Notes under the pieces: generated by a model
Databases searched by the model: none
What the model saw: only the letters and a program-made list of their open reading frames with translations
Told to the model about the DNA's origin: nothing
Assembly: GCA_016880465.1 (NCBI GenBank)
Contig: JAEHDK010000738.1
Coordinates: forward strand, 1 to 48,929
Direction: 5' to 3'
DNA: 48,929 nt
Origin: Micromonosporaceae bacterium
GTDB lineage: Bacteria; Actinomycetota; Actinomycetes; Mycobacteriales; Micromonosporaceae
Made by a program: the position numbers and the translations under genes
Shown here: positions 59-34,654 of the stretch, piece after piece
Position numbering within the stretch: position 1 is the stretch's first letter
Layout of the letters: each line of letters starts with the position of its first letter

Positions 59-472
59 ATGCCAGGCCCTGCCCCGAAACTCGACCCCACCCGTCGGCAC
101 AGCCGCGTCGGCCCACGTCGCCTGCCGCCCGAGGGTCGCAAGGGCCCGACCCCCCGCTGGCCGCTGGTGCCAAGTCTTCCTCTTGCCGCCGAGGCTGAAC
201 TGTGGCGTCAGCTCTGGCACACACCGCAGGCCGCGGCGTGGGAGGAGTTGGGCTGGACCCGCACCGTGGCGCGCTACGCCAAGGTGCTGTTGCGGGCGGA
301 GGACCTGGACATGCCCGCCCTCGCCGAGGCCCGTCAGCTCGAGGATCGCCTAGGGCTAACGCCGAAGGCGATGCGGATGCTCTTGTGGGAGATTGCGCGC
401 GACGAGGTCGCCGAGAAGCGTGGACAGGCGCCGGCCACGTCGGCCCGGACCAGGATCAAAGCCGTCTCGTAG
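59..472 (+). CDS. Terminase small subunit (P27-like)
   Basis: ATG at 59. N-terminal MPGPAPKLDPTRR... motif is typical of P27-type small terminases. Abuts terL (stop 472, start 473). First gene after the genome end. Confidence 0.7.
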   Translation: MPGPAPKLDPTRRHSRVGPRRLPPEGRKGPTPRWPLVPSLPLAAEAELWRQLWHTPQAAAWEELGWTRTVARYAKVLLRAEDLDMPALAEARQLEDRLGLTPKAMRMLLWEIARDEVAEKRGQAPATSARTRIKAVS

Positions 473-2071
473 ATGCCATGGCGTGGTCCTGCCGAGGACG
501 GGGAGTTCCCAACGCTCGGCTACGACGTCGGAGAGTGGATCGAGGCCCATGTCGTCATCCCCGACGGATACCGGCAGGGTGAGCCATACCGCCTCACGGA
601 TGAGATGTGGAAGTTCCTGGTCCACTTCTACCGACTCTATCCGCACGCCGAGCCGTGGCCGGCGCCGGACGCGTTGCGGTACACGGGAGCGCAGTTGCGG
701 CGGTCGCAGAAGTGGGGCAAGGACCCGTTCGGTGCCGCGATCGACTTGGCGGAGGGGCTGGGGCCGACCCGGTTCGATGGGTGGAATGCCCGCGGCGAGC
801 CGGTGGGGGCCCCATACCCAACTCCGTTGATCGTCTGTCTGGGTACATCGGAGGATCAGACCGACAACACGTGGCGGCCGCTGCTCAACATGATCCGCCT
901 CGGCCCCTTGATCAACCTGTCGGGCATGGACGCGGGGGAGACCCGGATCAATCTGCCCTCGGGCGGCCGGATGGAGCCGGTCACCACGTCTGCCCGGGCT
1001 CGACTCGGGGCACCGATGACGTTCCTGACCCTCACGGAATCGCACCTGTTCACGTTGCAGGGCGGTTACCGGAAGGTCTGCGGCGCGGTGAAACGCAACG
1101 TCGCCGGTATGGACGGCCGGTGGTTGGAGTTGACCAACGCCTGGGACCCGACCGAGGGTTCCGAGGCGCAGGTGACTGCCGAATCCGGTGACGATCGGGT
1201 CTATGTGGACACCGTGGAGCCCAACCGGGTCGTCGACCTGACTGACGACGAGACGCTCTATGCCGAACTCTTGCGTCAGTACGGCGACTCTGCCCGTGAG
1301 CGGGGCGGTTGGGTCAACATCAAGGGCCGGATCTTTCATGAGGTCCGTTCGTCGCGGCATCTCGAGGCGGACCGGCGGCGATTTTTCCTCAACGAGATCG
1401 TCGTCGGCGAGTCGGTGCTGGTGGACCCGATCCGGTGGGATCTGGCGGGCCGCGAGGACGCCCTGGTGGCCGGAGAAGCGGTCGCACTGGGCTTTGATGG
1501 GTCGAAGTATCAGGACGCGACCGCGCTGGTGGCGTCGCGGATCGCCGACTCGCGTTTGTTCTGTCTTCGGGTGTGGGAGAAGCCGCAGGGCGCCGGCCGG
1601 GATTGGCGGGTGCCCGGACCCGAGGTGGATCGGGTGGTCCGGGACGTGTTCGCCGCCTATCGGGTCGCGGTTCTTTATGCCGATCCGTACCGCTGGCAGG
1701 ACTACTTGGACCAGTGGGCGGCCGCGTTTCCGAAGCGGGTCGTGGAGTTCAACACGAACGTCGAGCAGCGTATGGACCGGGCGATTGAAAGGTTTGTCAC
1801 CTCGTTCGGTGAGGGCGAACTGACCCACGACGGGTCACCTCACCTGACTCGGCACATCAAGAACGCCGTCCTGGTGAAGGGTTCCCGCAAGAAACCCCGG
1901 CCCGGTGAAGAGGACAGTGTCACTACGCACTACCTGAAGATGGCCAAGCGTGGCGAGGCCATGTTGATCGACCTGGCGGTTGCGGCGGTGCTCGCCCACC
2001 ATGCCCGCGGGCATGCCATTGAGGACGGATTCCAGACGACCGCACCGGAGCCTATGGTGGCATGGCGCTGA
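473..2071 (+). CDS. terL: Terminase large subunit
   Basis: 532 aa. N-terminal FPTLGYDVGEWIE...YRLTDEMWKFL and C-terminal ALGFDGSKYQDATALV nuclease-like segment resemble Terminase_1-type large subunits. Lies between terS and portal. Confidence 0.9.
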   Translation: MPWRGPAEDGEFPTLGYDVGEWIEAHVVIPDGYRQGEPYRLTDEMWKFLVHFYRLYPHAEPWPAPDALRYTGAQLRRSQKWGKDPFGAAIDLAEGLGPTRFDGWNARGEPVGAPYPTPLIVCLGTSEDQTDNTWRPLLNMIRLGPLINLSGMDAGETRINLPSGGRMEPVTTSARARLGAPMTFLTLTESHLFTLQGGYRKVCGAVKRNVAGMDGRWLELTNAWDPTEGSEAQVTAESGDDRVYVDTVEPNRVVDLTDDETLYAELLRQYGDSARERGGWVNIKGRIFHEVRSSRHLEADRRRFFLNEIVVGESVLVDPIRWDLAGREDALVAGEAVALGFDGSKYQDATALVASRIADSRLFCLRVWEKPQGAGRDWRVPGPEVDRVVRDVFAAYRVAVLYADPYRWQDYLDQWAAAFPKRVVEFNTNVEQRMDRAIERFVTSFGEGELTHDGSPHLTRHIKNAVLVKGSRKKPRPGEEDSVTTHYLKMAKRGEAMLIDLAVAAVLAHHARGHAIEDGFQTTAPEPMVAWR

Positions 2072-2081
2072 GGGGAGTCCG

Positions 2082-5000
2082 GTGACCCTCGAGCTGGTGC
2101 CGTTCCGCGGCCACACGGTGCCAGTCCTCAACGGCGTCAACGGCGAGATCGCCCGGTACAGCCTGCAGCAGTACCTGCAGGACACCACGTTCCGGTTCGG
2201 CGGGATCACCTACCAGCCCAACCAGTACGGGGTCACCACCACGTGGGGGCAGCGTCCGGCCGAGAAGGTCGGCAACAACTTCGCCGGCTACGCCGAGGGG
2301 CTGTTGTACCGGGATGGCCCACTGGCCGCGGCGGAGGCGTACCGGCTGCGGGTCTTCGGCCAGGCGCCGATGCTGTTCCAGGAACGCTCGGACGGCCGGG
2401 CCGGGGATCTGCTCGACGACGACTCCCTCGAGCCGCTGCGCACCCCATGGGTGGGCGGGTCTACCGGCGACCTGATGAAGCGGGCCCTGCTCTACGGGGA
2501 CCTGGGCGGCAACGGCTGGGTCGTGCACATCGACGACGAACTGGTGGTGCTGCGCCCCGACTACGTGACGATCGTGCTGGCCGACCGGATGTACGAGGGC
2601 CGCAAGGTCGGGTTCAAGCAGGTCGGGATCGCCTACTCCGAGTACGGGCTGCAGGACGACTCGGCGGCGGTGTTCATGCGCGGCGAGTACTGCCACTTCG
2701 TGCCGTTCATGCCCGACCCGCTGGCCTCCTACCGGGGCATGTCGTGGATGACGCCGATCATCCGGGACATCCAGTCCGACATCGGGGCCACCGACCACGG
2801 CCTGGCCTGGTGGTCCAATGCCGCGACACCGAACCTCGCGGTGAGCCTGCCGAAGGAGATCACTCCGGAGCAGTTCAAGAAGTTCGTCGCCGAGATGGAC
2901 GCCAACCACCGCGGCGCGATGAACGCCTACCGCACCCTGTACACGGCCGGTGGGGCCGACGTGACCGTGGTCGGCGCGAACATGCAGCAGATCGACTACT
3001 CCCGGGTGGTCGGGAAGAACGAGACCCGCATCGCCAACCTGTCGGGTATTCACCCGGCTTTGCTTGGTTTCTCCGAGGGCATGCAGGGGTCGTCGCTGAA
3101 CGCGGGCAACTACTCGGCGGCCAAGCGCAACGTGGTCGACACGACGATGCGGGACCTGTGGGCCAACTGGTGTGCGTCGATGCAGGTCCTGTTCCCGCCG
3201 CCGGACCCGACGTGGCGGCTCTGGTACGACGGGCGGGACATTCCGTTCCTGCTCGACGACGCGAAGGATCTCGCGGAGCGGCAGCAGACGCAGGCGGCGA
3301 CGATCGCGTCGCTGATTCAGGCCGGGTTCGAGGCCGCGTCCGCGGTGTCCGCGGTGTCCGCCGACGACCTGAAGCATCTCAAGCACACCGGCCTGGTGTC
3401 GGTGCAGTTGCTGCCCCCGGGTGAGCAGCCCGGCCAGACGGACCAGACGGACACCGCCGCGTACGAGCAGGCGTTGCAGACCGCCCGCGCGCAGGTGTGG
3501 GGCGACGACGACATCGAGCGCGGCTACTACGGGGCCCTGCCCGGTGAGCGGGTCGGGAAGGGCAAGGTCGGCGGCGGCCGGTTCAAGAAGCTGTCCGACC
3601 GGGCGTTGGACGCGATCCGGGAGTTCTTCGCCGCGGACGCTGACGGGGATCCGTTGGAGGGTTGGACGCAGCCGCAGCTGAAGACGGCGGCCACCCAGTT
3701 GGGCATCGACGTGCCGCCGCGCATGTCCGGGCCGAAGTTGAAGCTGGCCATCTTGGAGCACGCGCGTGGCAAGCCGGACGGCACCCCGAAGCCTGCCGGG
3801 AAGGCCACCCCACGCGCACCGGCGAAGAAGGCGGCGCCGAAGCCTGCGCGGCGCGTGGAGACGATGGCGACCGCACTGCATGAGGATTGGCGCCAGACGT
3901 TCCACAAGACCTTCCGTGCCGACCCGGACAACGCCGGCAAGAAACCGACTCGTCTGAAGACCACCAAGGACAAGGGTTGGATCGCATCACACGGCACTGA
4001 TCAGGTGGACATCGCCAACACTGACTACGCGGACCTGCCTGAGGACTGGCAGCGCGAGAACCGCGCCGCAGCTGAGGTCATCGAGGGAATCCTCGCTCGG
4101 CGCGGTCGGGTCGACCTGGACGACCCGGCGACCCGCGAGGCCCTGGGTGAGGAGATCCACGCCGCTTGGCTGTCGCGCAACGAGTGGGCCCGCGGCGGCG
4201 ACCTCGACAAGCCGTTTGCCGAGTTGCCGAAGGTCGAGCAGGACAAGGACATCGACCAGCTTCGGGTGGCGATGGGAGCGATGAAACCGGCTCCGGCCAA
4301 GAAGGCTCCGGCCGAGCCCGGTCTGCCGCCGGGTTACGACTTGCGGATCTCTCCAGCCCTGCATGCCCCCGGGCGGTACAACGTTAAGGCCTTCTACCCC
4401 ACTGGCCGCGAGGTCCACATCACCCAGAACTTGACGCAGGCCGGGGCGCGACGCGAGTTGGATCGGTTGACCGCCGGTGGGCCGGAGTTGGTCGACGCTA
4501 CGCATGCGAAGAACTCCCACGCGGTTAGGGAGCGCAACCAAAGGTTGATGGAGGCGGAGGCACTCAAGGAACAAAGGAAGGTCAGGCGACAGCAGCTTCA
4601 GGGGCGCTCGCCCTCTTGGTTGCGCGAGCAGCTGGCCGATCGAGGCCTTGATACGTCCGGCACCACGGCGCAAATGATCAACCGCCTGATGGACGCTGAG
4701 GGTCTTGGACAGGCGGACACCAAGACGCCGTCTCGACCCGACCTCGAGGCCGCCGGGAAGGCCACCCCACGCGCACCGGCGAAGAAGGCGGCGCCGAAGG
4801 CTGCGCGCGAGTCGGTGCTCGGCGGCCCGATGGACGAGAACGAGGAGTTGCTGCACGGGCTCACTCTGGCCGAGATCGTCCAGGTGGCAGAGGAACTGAA
4901 CGTCCAGGCGCCCGTCGCCAACACGGGCCGTGGTTTTGGCATGGGCCGTAGGTGGCCATCGAGTAAGGCGGGCCGCATCAGGTATGTCCTTCAGTCGCTC

Positions 5001-7175
5001 GACCTGGCGGCGGGTCGGGATTCGGCCCACCGGGGGCGGTGGGAGATACCGAGGGCCGTTGAGGGCGTGGTGGCGCGGCGAGGCGATGTGCCGATGCCCG
5101 ACCCCGAGGCCGCCGCCCGCGACCGCCAGGCCGACATCGACTCCGCCCGCCGCTTCTCCGCCACCGCCGGCGAGTTGGACGAGATCCTCCACAACGACGC
5201 ATCCACCGAGGCGCTGCTGTCCCGGCTGGATAACGCGGGCGTGCGTCACGGGATCACCGACGAGTTGGCCCCGGTGCGGGCGGCGGTGGAGCAAGCCCGG
5301 CAGGTTGAGGTAGAGAACCGCATCCGCGCGGCCTTCCGTTCGCTGCTCGGGCGCCCCGGCCTGGAGGAGGGCCCGACCGAGTTCTCGATGGCGCCCGGCA
5401 TGACGCCGCAGCGCCTGATGCGCGAGGGCGGTTACGTCTCCATCGCTGACCTGCGCGACGAGTTGTCCGACATACCGCGAGCCGAGCAGGACGCGGCTCT
5501 CAAGCGGATCGCGATTCACGACCCGGGCGCGAACGCGGTGCCCGAATCGGCGCAGGGCAGTCTGACCGACCGGCAGCGCGCTGGAGCGCTGCACTATGGC
5601 GACCAGGACAAGCACTGGCTGATCATCGACGACCCGTCCGACCGCCCCGTCCCTTCGCCGCGCGCCGAGATGGACCGTCTCCTCGCCGCCCATGGCATCA
5701 CCCGCGATGGCGAGGCCGGCGACACCGGCGCCTTCACCCGCAGCCTGCACGAGCCGATCTCCGGTGACCTGCGCGAGGGGCAGCCGGTGCAGGTGATCCG
5801 GCCGGGGTTCAGCCTGGACCGGGACGGGGAGCGGATCCGGCTGTCGAAGGCGGTTGTGGAGGAGGCGGACGCGCCGGCTCCCATCGACGCGGACGACGAG
5901 TCCATTGACAGGCACCTGGATCGCCTCGCCGACCTCTTGAACGGGTTCGACCCGAAGGACCGCCAAACGTCTGCCGAGTTGACCGAGATCGCCAATGGGA
6001 TGCGGGATGGGTCCATCTCCGACCAGGCAGCGGCGGGTCGGCTGGCAGCATTGGCCGCCGACTACGAGGGCTCGAACACGGGGACGAACCTCGCGATGTG
6101 GTCGCGGGAACTCAGCGGTGGCACGGCGCCCTCCACCCCCGACCCCGAGGCCCTCCGCGACTCCCTGGACCTGAAGACCGTCGACCAGCTCAAGGACATG
6201 ATCCGCGAGCGTAACAAGGCCGGCGCCAACCTGCGGCTGTCCGGGCGGAAGCGGGAGCTCGTCGACCGGCTGGTGGAACACGAGACGGGCGGCGGTGGAC
6301 CGGCACCCGAGCCGCCGAAGAAGCGTGCGCCGAGGAAGGCTACGGCGCCCGCAGGGCGACCCCCGGCCACGCCCGTGCCGATCCACGACCTGCTCGACGC
6401 CGACGACGCTACGATCGACGCCGCCCTAAGGGACGTGTATGAAGGCCAGTTCGGCCCGTACACGACGAAGGTCACCAGAGTCGGCATCCGGCGGGCCGGC
6501 ATCCGAACCGACGGCAGGGGACGTGTGCACCCGGTCGACCCGGAGATCTTTGTCGAAGGTTCGATCTACGGCCCGGAAGGTGTCGCTGGCGGTAGCATCG
6601 GTAACTTCGGCCGGTCGATCGGACCGGCAACCATGCACTACGCCGACGGCACCGTCCGTCGCGAGGTATGGGCCCAGCACTCCATCGTCCAACTCGACGA
6701 GGAGTTCCAGGGCAAGGGCTTCGGCGGTCACTTCAACCGTCGCGTGATCGAGTGGTATCGCGCGTCGGGGGTCCACGGCATCAGCCAGGACGATCACAAC
6801 TTCTACGTGTGGGCGTCGCAGGGCTTCGACTTCCGTGGCGGCATCGTGACGCGGCAGGCCACCGAAGCGATGCGTGACCTCATCGCGTCCCTGCGGGCCG
6901 GCAAGACCAAGTTCAACTTCGGCGACACGATCCCCAAGCGGCTACGCGACGCGCCCGACCTCGAGGCACAGATCGCTGCCGCCGAGGCGCTACTGGCGCG
7001 GCTGGAATTAACGAGTCCAGGGCAACCCGACTACCCGACGGCCTACGAGATCTCACAACTTGGCCGGCGCCGTGGCCAGCGCGGGCGAACCGCCGTCTGG
7101 CTGGGCAAGCTGATCCCGGTCTCGGCAGACGAGATGATCCTCAACCCGGATGAGGGTGAGGTGATCAGCGGATGA
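2082..7175 (+). CDS. Portal protein fused to a ~1,200-aa polyvalent C-terminal extension (SAP/HeH motifs, RyR-like repeats, GNAT-like domain)
   Basis: GTG 2082 follows RBS AGGGGAG, 11 nt after the terL stop. One uninterrupted 1,697-codon frame. The first ~470 aa look like an HK97/SPP1-type portal; the rest is described in findings. The track start at 1980 overlaps terL and is rejected. Confidence 0.8.
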   Translation: MTLELVPFRGHTVPVLNGVNGEIARYSLQQYLQDTTFRFGGITYQPNQYGVTTTWGQRPAEKVGNNFAGYAEGLLYRDGPLAAAEAYRLRVFGQAPMLFQERSDGRAGDLLDDDSLEPLRTPWVGGSTGDLMKRALLYGDLGGNGWVVHIDDELVVLRPDYVTIVLADRMYEGRKVGFKQVGIAYSEYGLQDDSAAVFMRGEYCHFVPFMPDPLASYRGMSWMTPIIRDIQSDIGATDHGLAWWSNAATPNLAVSLPKEITPEQFKKFVAEMDANHRGAMNAYRTLYTAGGADVTVVGANMQQIDYSRVVGKNETRIANLSGIHPALLGFSEGMQGSSLNAGNYSAAKRNVVDTTMRDLWANWCASMQVLFPPPDPTWRLWYDGRDIPFLLDDAKDLAERQQTQAATIASLIQAGFEAASAVSAVSADDLKHLKHTGLVSVQLLPPGEQPGQTDQTDTAAYEQALQTARAQVWGDDDIERGYYGALPGERVGKGKVGGGRFKKLSDRALDAIREFFAADADGDPLEGWTQPQLKTAATQLGIDVPPRMSGPKLKLAILEHARGKPDGTPKPAGKATPRAPAKKAAPKPARRVETMATALHEDWRQTFHKTFRADPDNAGKKPTRLKTTKDKGWIASHGTDQVDIANTDYADLPEDWQRENRAAAEVIEGILARRGRVDLDDPATREALGEEIHAAWLSRNEWARGGDLDKPFAELPKVEQDKDIDQLRVAMGAMKPAPAKKAPAEPGLPPGYDLRISPALHAPGRYNVKAFYPTGREVHITQNLTQAGARRELDRLTAGGPELVDATHAKNSHAVRERNQRLMEAEALKEQRKVRRQQLQGRSPSWLREQLADRGLDTSGTTAQMINRLMDAEGLGQADTKTPSRPDLEAAGKATPRAPAKKAAPKAARESVLGGPMDENEELLHGLTLAEIVQVAEELNVQAPVANTGRGFGMGRRWPSSKAGRIRYVLQSLDLAAGRDSAHRGRWEIPRAVEGVVARRGDVPMPDPEAAARDRQADIDSARRFSATAGELDEILHNDASTEALLSRLDNAGVRHGITDELAPVRAAVEQARQVEVENRIRAAFRSLLGRPGLEEGPTEFSMAPGMTPQRLMREGGYVSIADLRDELSDIPRAEQDAALKRIAIHDPGANAVPESAQGSLTDRQRAGALHYGDQDKHWLIIDDPSDRPVPSPRAEMDRLLAAHGITRDGEAGDTGAFTRSLHEPISGDLREGQPVQVIRPGFSLDRDGERIRLSKAVVEEADAPAPIDADDESIDRHLDRLADLLNGFDPKDRQTSAELTEIANGMRDGSISDQAAAGRLAALAADYEGSNTGTNLAMWSRELSGGTAPSTPDPEALRDSLDLKTVDQLKDMIRERNKAGANLRLSGRKRELVDRLVEHETGGGGPAPEPPKKRAPRKATAPAGRPPATPVPIHDLLDADDATIDAALRDVYEGQFGPYTTKVTRVGIRRAGIRTDGRGRVHPVDPEIFVEGSIYGPEGVAGGSIGNFGRSIGPATMHYADGTVRREVWAQHSIVQLDEEFQGKGFGGHFNRRVIEWYRASGVHGISQDDHNFYVWASQGFDFRGGIVTRQATEAMRDLIASLRAGKTKFNFGDTIPKRLRDAPDLEAQIAAAEALLARLELTSPGQPDYPTAYEISQLGRRRGQRGRTAVWLGKLIPVSADEMILNPDEGEVISG
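3795..3850 (+). repeat. Direct repeat copy 1 (56 bp, 1 mismatch) inside the portal-fusion ORF
   Basis: GCCGGGAAGGCCACCCCACGCGCACCGGCGAAGAAGGCGGCGCCGAAG(C/G)CTGCGCG. Encodes AGKATPRAPAKKAAPK. The second copy is at 4752-4807, exactly 957 bp (319 codons) downstream. Confidence 0.9.
4752..4807 (+). repeat. Direct repeat copy 2 (56 bp, 1 mismatch) inside the portal-fusion ORF
   Basis: Same 56-bp string as 3795-3850, in the same reading frame. Confidence 0.9.
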
Positions 7176-7699
7176 TCGCGCGCGTTGTCCCCGATCCGAT
7201 CGTGGTGCGCCGTCGGAACGAGTTGCTCGATCTGTACCACGACTGGGCTGGCGACGGTGACCCGGACGACGATCCCGAGTTCGTGGACGCGGCGCGGGAG
7301 ATCATGGGCCTGCCGCCGCTGAGCGACGTAGTCCGTGCGGCCGTCAGCGACGATGGCGACTTCTACGATGAGGACCCCGGCGAGCCCGACGACGAGCAGC
7401 GCGCCCGGGCGCAGGCCCGCATGGACGAGATCGACCCGGACGGACCCGACGACGTAGCTCGAGCCGCCGGCGCCGACGTGACGCCGGGGCATGACGAGCT
7501 GCATCACTACTGGACGCGGGATCCGCGCGGGCTCGCCAAGTGGGCAAAGTCCCCGCACCCATGGACTGCCCTGTATCACCACTTGGTGAAGTTCGTCGGT
7601 CCCGAGCGAGCCAAGCGCATGGCCTCCCAGTGGCACAAGGAGGTCTTCGGAATCTGGGTGGGGGAGAAGAAGGGCAAGAACCCGCTCGGCCCTGGATGA
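7172..7699 (+). CDS. Head-module protein of unknown function (acidic N-terminal half; HHYWTRDPRGLAKWA..PHPWTALYHHL..AKRMASQWHKEVFG motif)
   Basis: ATGA overlap with the portal-fusion stop and high third-position GC. I recognise the C-terminal motif from actinophage head modules, but no function is known. Confidence 0.7.
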   Translation: MIARVVPDPIVVRRRNELLDLYHDWAGDGDPDDDPEFVDAAREIMGLPPLSDVVRAAVSDDGDFYDEDPGEPDDEQRARAQARMDEIDPDGPDDVARAAGADVTPGHDELHHYWTRDPRGLAKWAKSPHPWTALYHHLVKFVGPERAKRMASQWHKEVFGIWVGEKKGKNPLGPG

Positions 7700-7751: not shown

Positions 7752-8558
7752 TTGGAGTCGAACGTGCACCAGACTATGGTGTGCGCGGTTTGCCAAGTAC
7801 TTTTCGAGCCACGCAACCCGCGACAGGTCACCTGCTGCAACCGCTGCTACATGTGGCACCGGCGGCACCCGAACCAGCCAGACGTGCCTCGGTTCTGCGA
7901 GACTTGCGGCGATCGGCTCCCGGTCGGCTGTAATCGCGCCAGGCGGTACTGCCGGATGGCGTGCAATGCGGCGGCATCGAAGCGCCGCTGTCGTCCGAAC
8001 GTAGGTGAGTACAGGTACTACTCAGACTGCCAGCACTGTGGCGCCGCACTGTCTGGCCGTCGTGCCGGGAAGCGCTTCTGCAATGGACGGTGCGAGCAAC
8101 GGGAGCGGGTCTTCCCTGGCAGTGCTTGGTACTACGCCAATCGCAGGTGCGAGTACTGCGGCGAGCCGATTCCGGTCGAAGCCCGTTATAACAAGCGCCA
8201 TTGCTCAAACGAATGCACGGCGAAGGCCAACATGGACCTTCGCCGGGCTCGCATGGAGGCGCTTCCGTCGGAGCGGATCAACCGATGGAAGGTCTTTGAG
8301 CGCGACGGTTGGATCTGCCATCTGTGCAAGCTGCCGGTCGACAAGACGCTCAGTGGCCTGGACCCCGGGATGGCGAGCCTGGATCACATCATCCCGTTCA
8401 ACGAGCCCGACAGCCCTGGGCACGTCTGGACCAACGTCGCTCTGGCTCATTTACGCTGCAATTTCTCGAAGAACGCTCGGACCCGTCAAGAGGACTGGTC
8501 GCTGCACATCGCCCTCGCAGTCACGGGCAAAGCCCCGCCTCCTGGGCGCCTCTTCTGA
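7752..8558 (+). CDS. HNH endonuclease with four N-terminal CxxC..(F/Y/H)C(S/N/R)xxC zinc-ribbon repeats
   Basis: C-terminal WICHLCKLPV...LDHIIPF...NVALAHLRCNFSKN is a classic HNH motif. The N-terminus holds four repeated zinc-ribbon modules. Start is uncertain (TTG 7752, GTG 7764, ATG 7776). Confidence 0.85.
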   Translation: MESNVHQTMVCAVCQVLFEPRNPRQVTCCNRCYMWHRRHPNQPDVPRFCETCGDRLPVGCNRARRYCRMACNAAASKRRCRPNVGEYRYYSDCQHCGAALSGRRAGKRFCNGRCEQRERVFPGSAWYYANRRCEYCGEPIPVEARYNKRHCSNECTAKANMDLRRARMEALPSERINRWKVFERDGWICHLCKLPVDKTLSGLDPGMASLDHIIPFNEPDSPGHVWTNVALAHLRCNFSKNARTRQEDWSLHIALAVTGKAPPPGRLF

Positions 8559-8620: not shown

Positions 8621-8644
8621 GGCATGCCCGGAAGGGAGCGAGGC

Positions 8645-9703
8645 GTGGACGACATCGAACGTCGCATGATGTCCACCGAGGAGATCAACGACCTTCCCGA
8701 CGACGCCTTCGCCTACATCGAGCCCGGCGGGACGAAGGACGCCCAGGGCAAGACCGTCCCCAGGTCGCTGCGGCACTTCCCCATCCACGACCGCGCGCAC
8801 GTCGAGAACGCGATGGCCCGCATGTCCCAGTCCCCACACGGCGAGCACGCCAAGAAGAAGATCATGGCGGCGGCCAAGAAGTACGGCATGGGCATGTCCG
8901 ATGACGCCGAACGTGCCGTGACCCGTTGCTGCCCGGCCGAGCACACCTTCGACCGCGAATGGCCGCTGGACGACATCGTCATCCGCGCCGGCGGCGACGG
9001 CCGCACCGTCGAGGCGTACGCCGCGGTCTTCGGCGTCCCGACGGAGGTCAAGGACCAGCACGGCCACTACATGGAGACCATCGACCGGGCCGCGTTCAAC
9101 GAGGTACTCGCCGAAGGCATCGACAAGGTTGGATGCTATTATCACCACGGGATGACCTTGCACGGCACCCCGTCCGACCTCGGATCGGTGCCCATCGGCT
9201 CCCCCGTCGACATCCGCGCCGATAGCAAGGGCCTTCGCACCATCACCCGGTTCAACAAGTCCGCCCTGGCCGACGCGACCCTCGAGGCCATCCGCGCCGG
9301 GGACCTGCGCGGCTACTCCTTCCGCGGCCCGATCCGCAAGTCCAACCCGCCACGCATCGCCCGCGCCCGCGACGGCCAACCCCTGCCTACTGTCACCCGC
9401 ATGGCGCTCGGGCTCAACGAGTACGGCCCCACCCCCACCCCGTACTACGCCGACGCGAGGATCCTGGCGGTCCGCTCGGCGCAGGCCATCGCCACCAACC
9501 CGGTCGCGCTCGCCGAACTTCAGGCCGAACTCGCCCGCATGCTTGCCCGCTCCACTCCGTTGGACCAGGAGCGGGACCCCGCCACTCCCACCGAGGGACC
9601 AGGCGCCGAGGACCAGCCCACCGAGGCACTCCGGTCGGCATCCATGCACGACATCCGCCGGCGCATCGCCGTATTCAAGATCCTCGGAGGAAGAAAGTCA
9701 TGA
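8645..9703 (+). CDS. HK97-family prohead (capsid maturation) protease
   Basis: The DIVIRAGGDGRTVEAYAAVFG...ETIDRAAF...LRGYSFRG region matches the U35/HK97 prohead protease pattern. N-terminal LRHFPIHDRAHVENAMARM module. GTG 8645 follows RBS GGAAGGGAG; in-frame alternatives are ATG 8624 and 8666. Confidence 0.85.
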   Translation: MDDIERRMMSTEEINDLPDDAFAYIEPGGTKDAQGKTVPRSLRHFPIHDRAHVENAMARMSQSPHGEHAKKKIMAAAKKYGMGMSDDAERAVTRCCPAEHTFDREWPLDDIVIRAGGDGRTVEAYAAVFGVPTEVKDQHGHYMETIDRAAFNEVLAEGIDKVGCYYHHGMTLHGTPSDLGSVPIGSPVDIRADSKGLRTITRFNKSALADATLEAIRAGDLRGYSFRGPIRKSNPPRIARARDGQPLPTVTRMALGLNEYGPTPTPYYADARILAVRSAQAIATNPVALAELQAELARMLARSTPLDQERDPATPTEGPGAEDQPTEALRSASMHDIRRRIAVFKILGGRKS

Positions 9704-11178
9704 GCCTCAAGCGCCTCGACGAGGTCGACGCCGAACTGGCGCTCGTCGAGCAGCAGATCGAAGAGATCAACAACCTGGCCGAGCCGGAGGGCGGAGACGC
9801 CGTCCGCGCCCAGATCCTGTCCGAACGCGACGCCCGCCTCGACGACCTGATCACCCGCCACAAGGAACTCCAGACCGAGCGGGAGCCGCTGCTGGTCCGC
9901 GCCAAGGAGCTGGACGCCATCCGCTCCGCGGCCCGCGACCGTGCCCGCACGGAGCCCGGCGACGGCGCGACCCCCGTCCGCTTCGACGGCCGCGGCCCGC
10001 AGGTCATGAACCGCGTCCAGCCGTACGAGGGCCTCGAACTGGTCCGCGCCGGCGTGGTTGCCCGCGAGGACATGATCGGCCGGGCGAAGGCCGCGGTCGA
10101 CACCGCCCCCAGGCACCTGTCCGACGACTCGCGGCAGAAGGTCACCCTCCTGCTGGAGGACGAGGGCAAGCAGGCCCCGCTCATCGCCCGGCACATGCTC
10201 CTCACCGGTTCGGAGGAGTACCACAAGCAGTTCCGCGAGTACATCGAGAGCAGGGGCGCCTACGCCGGTGACGTCATGCGTACCGCCCTGTCGCTGACCG
10301 ACGCCAATGGCGGCTACCTGGTGCCGTTCACCCTTGACCCGACCATCATCCTGACCAACGCGGGCATCCAGGGCACCATCCGGTCGATCTCCACCACGAA
10401 GACGATCGTCACCGACGCCTGGCACGGCGTCACCTCCGCCGGTGTCACGGCCGAGTGGCTCGCGGAAGCCACCCAGGCCGCGGACGCGACCCCGACCTTC
10501 GGCCAGCCCACCATCACCCCGCGCAAGGCCGCGGCGTGGGTGTTCGGCAGCTACGAAGTCCTGGCCGACTCCGGCTTCGCCAGCGAACTGCAGATGCTTC
10601 TGGCCGACGCCAAGCTGCGCCTGGAGGAAGCCGCATTCGCCACTGCGAACACGGCCGCGTCCAAGCCGGTCGGCATCGTGTCCGCCGTCGCCGCCATCAC
10701 CGCATCCATCGTCTCCTCGGCGACCATCACGTCGTTCGTCGTTGGCGACGTGTACCGGGTCGCCGACGCCCTGCGCGCCCGCGACGCCAGCCAGGCGTCG
10801 TGGATCGCGAACAAGACGATCTTCTCGAAGATCCGCCAGTTCGACACCTCCGGCGGCTCGGCGTTCTGGGCCAACCTCGGCATGGGCGTCCCGTCCCTGC
10901 TGCTCGGCCAGCCGCAGTACGAGTGCTCCACCATGGGCTCGGTGATCACCACGTCGGCCAACATCCTGCTCGCCGGCAACTTCAAGCAGTACTACGTGGT
11001 GGACCGGGTCGGCATGTCGGTGATGTACGAGCCGATGGTCAAGTCCACCAACGCCAACCGCCCTACTGGCGAGGCCGGCTGGTTCGCTTTTTGGAGGGTT
11101 GGGGCCGATACGGTCGATCCGGATGCCTTCCGACTCCTACAGCTACACACAACTCCTGGCTTCACCGCGCTCGCCTAA
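9700..11178 (+). CDS. Major capsid protein, HK97 fold, with coiled-coil delta domain
   Basis: ATGA overlap with the protease. The N-terminal ~100 aa are coiled-coil (scaffold-like). TDANGGYLVPFTLDPTIIL and the C-terminal MYEPMV.. pattern are typical of HK97-type capsids. Confidence 0.9.
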   Translation: MSLKRLDEVDAELALVEQQIEEINNLAEPEGGDAVRAQILSERDARLDDLITRHKELQTEREPLLVRAKELDAIRSAARDRARTEPGDGATPVRFDGRGPQVMNRVQPYEGLELVRAGVVAREDMIGRAKAAVDTAPRHLSDDSRQKVTLLLEDEGKQAPLIARHMLLTGSEEYHKQFREYIESRGAYAGDVMRTALSLTDANGGYLVPFTLDPTIILTNAGIQGTIRSISTTKTIVTDAWHGVTSAGVTAEWLAEATQAADATPTFGQPTITPRKAAAWVFGSYEVLADSGFASELQMLLADAKLRLEEAAFATANTAASKPVGIVSAVAAITASIVSSATITSFVVGDVYRVADALRARDASQASWIANKTIFSKIRQFDTSGGSAFWANLGMGVPSLLLGQPQYECSTMGSVITTSANILLAGNFKQYYVVDRVGMSVMYEPMVKSTNANRPTGEAGWFAFWRVGADTVDPDAFRLLQLHTTPGFTALA

Positions 11179-11275: not shown

Positions 11276-11309
11276 GGAACCCCCGGGCACCCAGGAGCCC
11301 GGGGGTTCC
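11276..11309 (+). terminator. Perfect 13-bp hairpin downstream of capsid gene
   Basis: GGAACCCCCGGGC-ACCCAGGA-GCCCGGGGGTTCC. Preceded by a 7-bp hairpin GTCTCGG..CCGAGAC. Confidence 0.6.
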
Positions 11310-11330
11310 GCACATCCTGGGAGATGCGAA

Positions 11331-11963
11331 ATGGAACAAACCTGTCCAGAATGCGGCGGTGCCGTAGTCCAATGTGGAGTCGGACGCCCGCGAAAGTTCT
11401 GTTCTGAGCAATGCAAGATGCGGGCCACCAACCGGCGCAGTCGGCGTGCGTGGTTGCCGATCCGGCAGCGCTACTCGGGCATATGCAAGTGGTGCGACGG
11501 GCCGTTCGAGGCCACGAAACGCGGGAAGATCTTCTGTTCCCAGCGATGCGCCAACGCAGTGAGCAAGCGCCGTTCCCGCCGTGGCGAGCACGGCAAGGGG
11601 CCGAAGCCGTGCGCTACGTGTGGCAAGACCTTCGATGCGGTTCGATCGACGCACCGTTGGTGCTCGCAGCAGTGCAGAAACCGCCACTTCGGCCTCGTCA
11701 GGTCACGCAGCCGAGCCAAGCCATCCGGCGCCACCTACACTGACCGCGAGATATTCGAGCGCGACGGCTGGCGATGCCATCTTTGCGGCGACAAGGTGGA
11801 TCCGACAGTGGATCGACGCCATCCCGACGGGGCGACGATCGATCACCTCGTACCCATCTCGCTCGGCGGCGAGGACGAGCCGGCCAACGTCGCGACGGCG
11901 CACTGGAAGTGCAACCGCGACAAGGGCACGCGCGCCGTCGGCGAGCAGCTTGCCCTTCTGTGA
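11331..11963 (+). CDS. HNH endonuclease with three N-terminal CxxC..FCSxxC zinc-ribbon repeats
   Basis: ATG 11331 lies inside the long track ORF 10455-11963, whose 5' part overlaps the capsid gene and is rejected. WRCHLCGDKV...IDHLVPISLGG...NVATAHWKCNRDKG is the HNH motif. Confidence 0.85.
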   Translation: MEQTCPECGGAVVQCGVGRPRKFCSEQCKMRATNRRSRRAWLPIRQRYSGICKWCDGPFEATKRGKIFCSQRCANAVSKRRSRRGEHGKGPKPCATCGKTFDAVRSTHRWCSQQCRNRHFGLVRSRSRAKPSGATYTDREIFERDGWRCHLCGDKVDPTVDRRHPDGATIDHLVPISLGGEDEPANVATAHWKCNRDKGTRAVGEQLALL

Positions 11964-33743: not shown

Positions 33744-33772
33744 GCCCGAGCCGGTCACAACCCGGCTCGGGC
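33744..33772. terminator. 11-bp perfect hairpin at the integrase 3' end
   Basis: GCCCGAGCCGG-TCACAAC-CCGGCTCGGGC. The int stop codon (TCA on the plus strand) sits in the loop. Confidence 0.5.
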
Positions 33773-34654
33773 CCCCGTGTCTGGCACCGGCAGCGCGAGC
33801 ACGGCAGCGCGGCGTTGATGGCCGGTCACCTGCGTGTATCCCTGGGTGCTGGTGACGTTCTTGTGCCGCAGGCACTCCTGGGTGACCCGCAGGTCCCCCA
33901 CGGTGGCCTGGATCAGCGTCCCGTACCGATGCCGGAGCCGGTGCAGGTGCACTGTATGCAACCCCAGCCGGTCGAGGTGGTACCTGGCCGTCTGGGTGAT
34001 CCAGTGCCCGTCGACCGGTTGTCCCCTGCGGTTGGTCACGAGCGGGCCGGGTGACCGGTTCACCACCAGCGCCCAGACGATCGGGTGGGTCGGTACGACA
34101 CCCGGTTGGTCACCCTTGCCCGAGGGGATCAGGATCGTCTCAGCCGTGATGTGCTCGCGCATGCAGGCCGCGATCTCCGATACCCGCATGCCCGCGTACC
34201 CGGCGAGGGTGGCCGCGGTGCGCAGCGGTTCCGGTAGGGCGTCGAGCATGGCCGCCAGCTCCTCCTCGGTGACCGGTTTCGGTAGGCACCTCGGGGCCTT
34301 CGGCTGGGGGATGGAGGCGGTGGGGTCTCCGTCGAGAAACCCGGCGGAGGTGGCCCACTGGTAGAAGGCCCGGATGTGGTAGGCGTACACGGACAGTGTC
34401 CAGCGGGACCGACCCAAGGTGCGGAGGTCGGACAGCCACGCCTCGATCTGCTCGGTGGCGGCGAACGCGAGGCCGAAGGGCAGCCATCCGTTGAGCCGGC
34501 CGAGCACGTTGACGCGTGCCTCGATGGTGCGTCTGCTCTTGCCTCCCGCCCGTAGGTGCCGGGCGTGGAGGTCCAACAACTGATCACTCATCCGCAGATC
34601 TTCGTGACGTCGGGTCACTACGGGCAACCCCTCTCCAGTCTGTGATGGCTCCAC
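33755..34654 (-). CDS. int: Tyrosine integrase (XerC/D-like, 299 aa)
   Basis: GMRVSEIAA (Arg I), HLHRLRHRYGT (HxxR) and LRHKNVTSTQGYTQV (His..Tyr). The start overlaps the repressor stop by 1 nt. Alternative start is ATG 34591. Confidence 0.9.
   Translation of the reverse strand: MEPSQTGEGLPVVTRRHEDLRMSDQLLDLHARHLRAGGKSRRTIEARVNVLGRLNGWLPFGLAFAATEQIEAWLSDLRTLGRSRWTLSVYAYHIRAFYQWATSAGFLDGDPTASIPQPKAPRCLPKPVTEEELAAMLDALPEPLRTAATLAGYAGMRVSEIAACMREHITAETILIPSGKGDQPGVVPTHPIVWALVVNRSPGPLVTNRRGQPVDGHWITQTARYHLDRLGLHTVHLHRLRHRYGTLIQATVGDLRVTQECLRHKNVTSTQGYTQVTGHQRRAAVLALPVPDTGARAGL

Follow-up and report, generated by a model that had tools for sequence, protein, structure and literature searches.

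A divergent GNAT-like domain at the extreme C-terminus of a phage portal-fusion protein from a Micromonosporaceae contig

The window examined here is the complete contig JAEHDK010000738.1 (48,929 bp, ~68% G+C) in the assembly GCA_016880465.1 of a Micromonosporaceae bacterium. It carries a phage head module and also a tyrosine integrase gene, because of which the phage is considered to be temperate (Table 1). Between the terminase genes and the protease and capsid genes lies a portal-fusion ('polyvalent') gene, whose single unbroken open reading frame (ORF) spans 1980/2082..7175 on the forward strand. The protein record P0002 (1697 aa) is 100% identical to its product and starts at GTG 2082. 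The frame is open as far back as an in-frame TTG at 1980, where it runs into the end of the terminase gene; this TTG is the less likely start of the portal fusion. The subject of this study is the 267-aa domain that ends this protein and stops one codon short of the stop codon. The domain very probably has a GNAT core, and a very divergent one.

This conclusion is drawn from structural models, which can be compared with the profile matches of the window protein and its relatives. AlphaFold2 (AF2) with a 20-row alignment of close homologues gave a model with a predicted local distance difference test score (pLDDT) of 89.7. With a 74-row diverse alignment, the pLDDT was 94.4 and the predicted template modelling score (pTM) was 0.88; all five models exceeded a pLDDT of 94 and were identical in secondary structure. 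Both models show a compact domain, and when they were compared with the Protein Data Bank (PDB) by Foldseek, the top 50 matches were almost all GNATs, at a probability of about 1.0. Among these are nourseothricin and streptothricin acetyltransferases, HAT1, Naa50/Ard1 and the toxins AtaT, TacT and KacT, and they were superposed over 95–116 residues with a root-mean-square deviation (rmsd) of 3.5–5 Å. In a fold search of BFVD, the first matches were uncharacterised phage proteins and extended over the whole domain; phage acetyltransferases followed. Weak matches to GNAT profiles were found at the same spot in the window protein and in its relatives. In the former, a sub-threshold alignment with Acetyltransf_CG covers domain residues 98–134. 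In the latter, the matches of Microbacterium phage Jera gp5 and of the loci L007 and L010 (E 0.014–0.041) occupy the homologous position, residues 492–567 of Jera gp5 being aligned with GNAT profile positions 32–104. Among 68 distant relatives, four match the Pfam model Acetyltransf_1 at E < 1e-3 (best 6.7e-6), and the relative P0004 has been named 'GNAT superfamily N-acetyltransferase' by JGI. Thus, the original prediction, made from the sequence of this window, that the portal fusion ends in a GNAT-like domain is supported, and the Foldseek comparison that it had named as a check gave the GNATs just mentioned.

The order of the secondary structure elements, as assigned by DSSP and numbered from the first residue of the domain, is as follows: a helix (12–23), strands (25–40), a β-hairpin (43–55), strands (58–66, 75–90 and 95–108), a glycine loop (113–118), a helix (117–132), a strand (136–139), a helix (145–149), a largely helical stretch (155–250) and two strands (252–256 and 264–266). 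In these models, the strands at 58–108 would correspond to β2–β4 of the GNAT fold, the helix 117–132 to α3, the strand 136–139 to β5 and the helix 145–149 to α4. The cofactor half of the fold (β4, the Q-x-x-G-x-G/A loop, α3, β5 and α4) therefore appears to be retained. The usual α1/α2 arm appears to be replaced by an N-terminal arm composed of a helix and then the β-hairpin. The two terminal strands probably close the sheet as β6/β7. If they do, this explains why the domain is nearly always protein-terminal: in 129 of 157 homologues, the C-terminus of the protein lies within 15 aa of the domain end.

The same 157 diverse homologues, drawn from clusters at 50% identity, provided the conservation figures given below. 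Four groups of conserved positions were found. One is motif A, which follows the segment SIVQLDEEF (6681–6707): Q113 is conserved in 73%, G114 in 96%, G116 in 97% and F117 in 91% of the homologues, and position 118 is G or A. This loop is expected to be the pyrophosphate-binding loop for acyl-CoA. Two further groups are in the N-terminal sheet and in the region from α3 to α4. The conserved positions of the N-terminal sheet are G77, R81 and H103, the last of which (91%) is on β4. Those from α3 to α4 are N122, W128, Y129, R130, G133, D141 (87%), Y145 (95%), W147 (99%), A148 (96%) and G151 (99%). Y145, which opens the helix 145–149, is a candidate for the catalytic Tyr. The last group is in the helical insertion (P222, 82%; E226, 87%; S228, 90%; Q229, 82%; G231, 98%; R232, 92%; W243, 97%; G245, 98%; K246, 89%), and this motif is absent from canonical GNATs, which makes it an obvious candidate for the recognition of the substrate. 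As a whole, the domain is mildly acidic, with an isoelectric point (pI) of 5.8, as compared with a family median of 6.1.

These data refine the earlier description, in which the domain was placed at 6430–6850, with QGKGFG as motif A and DDHNFYVWASQGFDF as a match to motif B (N..A...Y...GF). Both motifs do lie within that interval; the domain itself is larger, as its conserved unit begins upstream and ends downstream of it. The motif-B region is indeed strongly conserved. However, the position of the canonical Tyr is taken by the invariant Trp, W147, four residues before GF, and the conserved Tyr, Y145, is found two residues earlier.

Table 1. Features of the window that bear on the portal fusion and its C-terminal domain. 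Coordinates are those of the whole window.
Feature	Position	Strand	Basis or remark
Small terminase	59-472		
Large terminase subunit	473..2071	+	directly 5′ of the portal fusion
Portal-fusion ('polyvalent') gene	2082..7175	+	1697 aa from GTG 2082
HK97-type portal domain	2361..3329	+	Pfam Phage_portal PF04860, E 8.3e-25, residues 128-450 of the frame starting at 1980; PHROGs: phrog_12 portal protein
SAP (HeH) DNA-binding motif, mid-extension	4620..4697	+	Pfam PF02037, residues 881-906
Second SAP motif	6228..6284	+	Pfam
Pro/Ala/Lys-rich linker between the second SAP motif and the GNAT-like domain	up to ~6371	+	read from the translation
GNAT-like C-terminal domain	6372..7172	+	267 aa, residues 1431-1697 of the 1697-aa protein; conserved unit, AF2 models, Foldseek
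β-sheet half of the domain, residues 25-108	6444..6695	+	DSSP; includes two long strands, 75-90 and 95-108, read as GNAT β3 and β4
Motif A, QGKGFG (Q/R-x-x-G-x-G/A)	6708..6725	+	domain residues 113-118, loop between β4 and helix 117-132
Motif-B region, DDHNFYVWASQGFDF	6789..6833	+	β5 to α4
Helical insertion, ~95 aa, residues 155-250	6834..7121	+	DSSP helices 161-175, 189-192, 197-213, 224-228, 244-247; outside the canonical GNAT fold
Second family signature, P-T-A-Y-E-I-S-Q-L-G-R-x3-G-x2-G-x4-W-L-G-K	7035..7109	+	within the insertion
Two terminal β-strands, residues 252-256 and 264-266	7125..7169	+	DSSP
175-aa gene	7172..7699	+	start overlaps the portal-fusion stop (ATGA)
HNH endonuclease	7752-8558		between the portal fusion and the protease
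Prohead serine protease (Peptidase_S78)	8624..9703	+	
Major capsid protein (HK97 fold family)	9700..11178	+	
Second HNH endonuclease	about 11300-11963		right after the capsid gene
Tyrosine integrase	33755..34654	-	phrog_1, E 3e-31

The domain belongs to a sizeable family. A search with its 267 aa found 327 representative proteins at E ≤ 1e-3, 145 of which were at E ≤ 1e-10; the family size is at least 327 clusters at 50% identity. The N-terminal partners in the 68 distant relatives are Phage_min_cap2 (13 proteins), VG15 (9), Phage_Mu_F (8), ADP-ribosyltransferase (4) and portal (1), and domains of the SPP1-gp7 type also occur among them. MuF domains in the relatives are of the families PF04233, PF06152 or TIGR01641. 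In close relatives, which are 59–92% identical in the domain, the module stands behind HK97-type portals (PF04860), the Mu-type portal PF06074 or the MuF domain PF04233, and ADP-ribosyltransferase (PF03496), NUDIX domains and intein-containing portals are also carried. The portals of two relatives, P0008 and P0022, contain LAGLIDADG/intein domains (PF14528, PF14890), indicating that giant portal fusions can host inteins. The comparison between the module and the portal is informative. The closest relative, P0003, is 86% identical to the window protein in the module and 37% identical in the portal; for P0007, P0010 and P0014, the corresponding values are 59–64% and 35–38%. Since conservation is much higher in the module than in the essential portal to which it is fused, the module behaves as a mobile, strongly constrained cassette. 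At residues about 1000–1090, P0003 has an HExxH zincin-like motif (THEFGHAMDY) that is absent from the window protein; this is a swap of a cargo domain upstream of the constant GNAT-like end.

Among isolated phages (50,697 records), neither a tblastn search with the C-terminal 398 aa nor a megablast search with the first 12 kb of the window gave a match. The search with a family centroid found distant members only, namely, Microbacterium phage Jera, the Bacillus phages JL, Shanette and CP-51, and Alteromonas phage R7M; at E ≤ 1e-3, no record of an uncultured Mediterranean phage was found in the phage collection. The labels of these proteins do not refer to the domain. Jera gp5 (PP405127.1 gene 5; L012:3609-5612) is labelled 'capsid maturation protease'. 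By Pfam, it has Phage_min_cap2 (MuF2, E 4.5e-40) at residues 14–353 and the GNAT-like domain C-terminal to it, and no protease family was found there. The JL protein is labelled 'PE-PGRS family protein', and R7M gp24 is labelled 'head morphogenesis'. The proteins of the three Bacillus phages are also the best fold matches in BFVD. In the GTDB representative genomes, two loci only were found, one in a Micromonosporaceae metagenome-assembled genome (MAG) and the other on a contig of an 'Opitutaceae' MAG. The narrow subfamily is thus known essentially from metagenomes. On the latter contig (L002, CAZGJZ010000022.1, labelled as an uncultured Opitutaceae MAG), a 60%-identical copy of the domain ends a gene that is upstream of a portal gene and not fused to it. 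The contig is short, and its Opitutaceae label may reflect the binning of a phage contig.

As for the remainder of the portal fusion, a module located at about 5080–5500 (residues about 1035–1170 of the frame from 1980) opens with EVENRIRAAF and closes with DKHWLIIDD. It is repeated in many relatives, sometimes three or four times, and resembles a repeat of the winged-helix type; no Pfam family was matched. A RyR-like domain and a GrpE-C-terminal-like module, read from the translation in the middle of the fusion, were dropped, since neither had Pfam support at E ≤ 0.05. The short ORFs 6426–6797 (reverse strand) and 6439–6747 (forward strand) overlap the conserved coding frame and were taken as artefacts of the high G+C content. 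Downstream, the head module is interrupted by two HNH endonuclease genes. The 175-aa gene is kept directly downstream of the fusion in the close relatives L001 and L004 and exists as two separated pieces in L005. Its product has no Pfam family, and the last 70 aa give matches to phrog_6439 and to parts of the head maturation protease and virion structural protein families. In Jera, a distant relative, the 175-aa gene is missing, and what follows is a 42-aa ORF on the opposite strand. Because the product resembles pieces of head proteins, the gene was not read as an immunity gene; together with its absence from Jera, this led us to reject that assignment as unsupported.

The composition of the window protein recalls the polyvalent proteins of phages, which carry GNAT, ADP-ribosyltransferase and peptidase domains and for which packaging and injection have been predicted (PMC5512222). 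One polypeptide combines a portal domain (PF04860), two or more SAP motifs and the GNAT-like domain, and the domains are shuffled among the relatives, as is characteristic of that class. Likewise, in both cases a GNAT domain resides in a very long multidomain phage protein encoded among packaging and head genes, accompanied by a head-anchoring module (portal or MuF) and SAP/Rho-N binders; ADP-ribosyltransferase, NUDIX and zincin domains are found in the relatives of the window protein. Two families of RimI-like GNATs were described there, one in gammaproteobacterial prophages and the other in conjugative elements of the type IV secretion system (PMC5512222). The present family differs from them in that it occurs in actinobacterial phages, is missed by the Pfam GNAT models, and has a non-canonical N-terminal arm and the ~95-aa insertion with its invariant motif. 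It may coincide with the first of the two families.

The retention of the cofactor loop, of the His on β4 and of the Tyr at the start of α4 argues for an active enzyme. The domain is also covalently joined to a head-anchoring module, which is the portal in the window and MuF1, MuF2, VG15 or a Mu-type portal in the relatives. The portal C-terminus faces the capsid interior; therefore, the extension and the GNAT-like domain should be enclosed in the procapsid. The original prediction had proposed an injected effector that acetylates a host target, and the obligate link to head-anchoring modules (portal, MuF1, MuF2 and VG15), together with the co-occurrence of ADP-ribosyltransferase, is consistent with that idea. 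On balance, we lean slightly towards the whole chain, in which an active acyl-CoA-dependent transferase is loaded into the capsid by means of the portal fusion and is delivered to the host. According to this scheme, up to twelve copies would be located on the inner side of the portal in each procapsid. The extension, either freed by the S78 prohead protease or still tethered, would enter the next host together with the DNA. The prohead protease is a candidate for cutting the extension off the portal, the cleavage itself being a conjecture. In the new host, the domain would use acetyl- or acyl-CoA on a macromolecular target, such as a protein amine or an aminoacyl-tRNA. It would act early in infection, beside the other polyvalent cargo (ADP-ribosyltransferase, NUDIX, zincin peptidase and SAP DNA binders).

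Several points weigh against this reading, some of which concern the fold itself. The target-normalised TM-scores of Foldseek were 0.35–0.46, with E values of 1e-4 to 1e-3, and only ~100 of the 267 residues were superposed; the N-terminal arm and the insertion have no superposed equivalent, which keeps the scores under 0.5. The curated Pfam GNAT models were missed, the best being Acetyltransf_CG at E 0.16 (the gathering scores are 20–30 bits), and the domain had no match in NCBIfam and no relevant match in PHROGs. The PDB sequence-profile searches with the A1 and A2 profiles yielded no GNAT, their output being noise such as Nop58 and β-galactosidase. The Trp at the canonical Tyr position, described above, belongs here as well. 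Other points concern the scheme. Twelve 130-kDa extensions per portal are an unusual load. Moreover, the C-terminal part is the most conserved one, whereas the logic of polymorphic toxins expects it to be variable, and this could indicate a structural or assembly role instead.

Two explanations follow the latter direction. The conservation that is strongest outside motif A is that of the non-GNAT insertion motif, and this, together with the Trp in place of the Tyr, the failure of the window sequence to match curated GNAT models and a C-terminal placement that suits targeting or docking, would be expected of a GNAT-derived module that is not catalytic. Such a module would have a structural or binding role, for example in docking the extension to the inside of the capsid, to the portal crown or to DNA. 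We regard this as rather unlikely, since Q-x-x-G-x-G/A, H103 and Y145 are near-invariant across clusters at ≤50% identity and look like a retained cofactor site and active site; pseudo-enzymes usually lose exactly positions of this kind. Alternatively, an active GNAT may work on the assembly side, acylating a phage component (the capsid, scaffold, portal or another internal protein) during head morphogenesis. The domain is always tied to 'head morphogenesis' genes right after or within the portal gene, and acetyl-CoA is present in the producing cell and not inside the capsid. A conserved partner, whether a phage or a housekeeping component, would also lead one to expect a module better conserved than the portal. 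However, the relatives span different capsid and portal lineages (PF04860, PF06074, MuF1, MuF2 and VG15), for which a common phage substrate is hard to name, and effectors such as the co-fused ADP-ribosyltransferase, NUDIX and zincin domains are typically aimed at the host (PMC5512222). An assembly-side role is therefore judged to be unlikely.

The other two explanations concern nucleic acids. The original prediction had pointed to toxins of the TacT/AtaT type, which acetylate aminoacyl-tRNA, and the domain might accordingly be such a toxin of the MuF or toxin-antitoxin kind, with the 175-aa gene as its immunity or antitoxin gene. A structural echo does exist: in one of the two Foldseek searches, 20 of the top 50 PDB matches were AtaT, AtaT2, TacT1-3, KacT or related proteins, which also gave the lowest rmsd values (3.5–4.8 Å), although their count is inflated by the many PDB chains of these toxins. 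The conserved Tyr at the start of α4 can be compared with the PDB titles 'AtaT Y144F' and 'Y145F mutant of KacT'. In addition, close relatives keep the 175-aa gene, whose start lies across the stop codon of the fusion, and the phage is temperate, as are the carriers of MuF toxins (PMC5576092). The expected partner and format are nevertheless lacking. No adjacent antitoxin gene was found, the sole small neighbour (7172–7699) matching head-related PHROGs and no Pfam family, in a survey that did not extend to PADLOC and antitoxin libraries. The 175-aa protein matched no antitoxin-type family in that survey and resembles segments of head proteins, and the gene following that of Jera gp5 is the 42-aa ORF on the other strand. 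The domain has 267 aa with an insertion and is not stand-alone; its pI of 5.8 contrasts with the basic surface expected for tRNA binding, although this argument is weak. On these grounds, the domain is not assigned to the toxin-antitoxin modules of the TacT/AtaT type, and the toxin reading as a whole seems quite improbable. We give as little credence to a virion-delivered GNAT that acts on nucleic acid. Such an enzyme might acetylate host aminoacyl-tRNA at DNA entry, as an injected TacT/AtaT-like shut-off, or might acylate the incoming phage DNA in cis in a Mom-like manner, guided by the SAP motifs, to escape restriction; the insertion motif would then be a nucleic-acid-binding element. The injected acyl-CoA-dependent transferase remains the reading that we prefer.

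The resemblance to known systems can be specified further. Locally, the GNAT core is superposed best on the TacT, AtaT and KacT toxins (rmsd 3.5–4.8 Å over about 100 residues); they share motif A with the window domain, whose conserved Tyr near the start of α4 may be equivalent to their catalytic one. They differ in that the TM-scores are 0.35–0.43 and the sequence identities 12–20%, and in that they are stand-alone proteins of ~160–180 aa, whereas the window domain, acidic and with an insertion, is the last part of a 1697-aa protein. Parallels in architecture are found in the MuF-borne toxins (PMC5576092) and, among actinophages, in the MuF-VIP2 toxin and portal-MuF fusions (PMC7302621). There, a head-internal anchor is combined with an enzymatic C-terminal domain, and in the window with a probably enzymatic one, in a temperate phage, at or beside the portal gene, and relatives of the window domain are themselves fused to MuF1, MuF2 or ADP-ribosyltransferase. 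The window protein has no MuF domain detectable by Pfam or PHROGs, and its anchor is the portal itself. Unlike in the MuF systems, its C-terminal domain is conserved and not variable, and no candidate for an immunity gene recurs throughout the wider family. The main text of PMC5576092 contains neither 'GNAT' nor 'acetyl', and that of PMC7302621 does not contain 'acetyltransferase'.

Two other phage enzymes are instructive. Mom, a GNAT of phage Mu, takes glycine from Gly-tRNA and attaches it to adenine in DNA; its helical insertion is essential for activity (PMC13219725). It is alike in being a phage enzyme of the GNAT fold with a helical insertion; it is unlike in being the product of a separate late gene that is not anchored in the virion, and it was not among the 50 best PDB matches of Foldseek. 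By analogy, Mom shows that the donors and acceptors of phage GNATs may be other than acetyl-CoA and proteins. Alt of phage T4 is an ADP-ribosyltransferase that is carried in the head, is injected with the DNA and modifies host proteins at the start of infection (PMC5512222). A head-carried enzyme injected with the DNA is what is proposed for the window domain; Alt, however, is not a GNAT, and it is a head protein of its own rather than a C-terminal domain fused to the portal.

Enzymatic cargo, including GNATs, on head-anchored polyvalent phage proteins is a kind already known. The family of the window domain, which is unannotated in Pfam, NCBIfam and PHROGs, appears to be distinctive in its insertion motif and its terminal position. 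The present analysis defines it as a sizeable GNAT-fold family on portal and MuF head proteins, whose members are labelled as something else in isolated phages, and a cultivable, non-pathogenic system exists in Microbacterium phage Jera, which grows on M. foliorum. The higher conservation of the module, as compared with the portal, and its exchange among phage lineages point to a conserved target, either in the host or in the phage. If the domain is active, acylation would join ADP-ribosylation among the virion-carried enzyme activities that serve the first minutes of infection.

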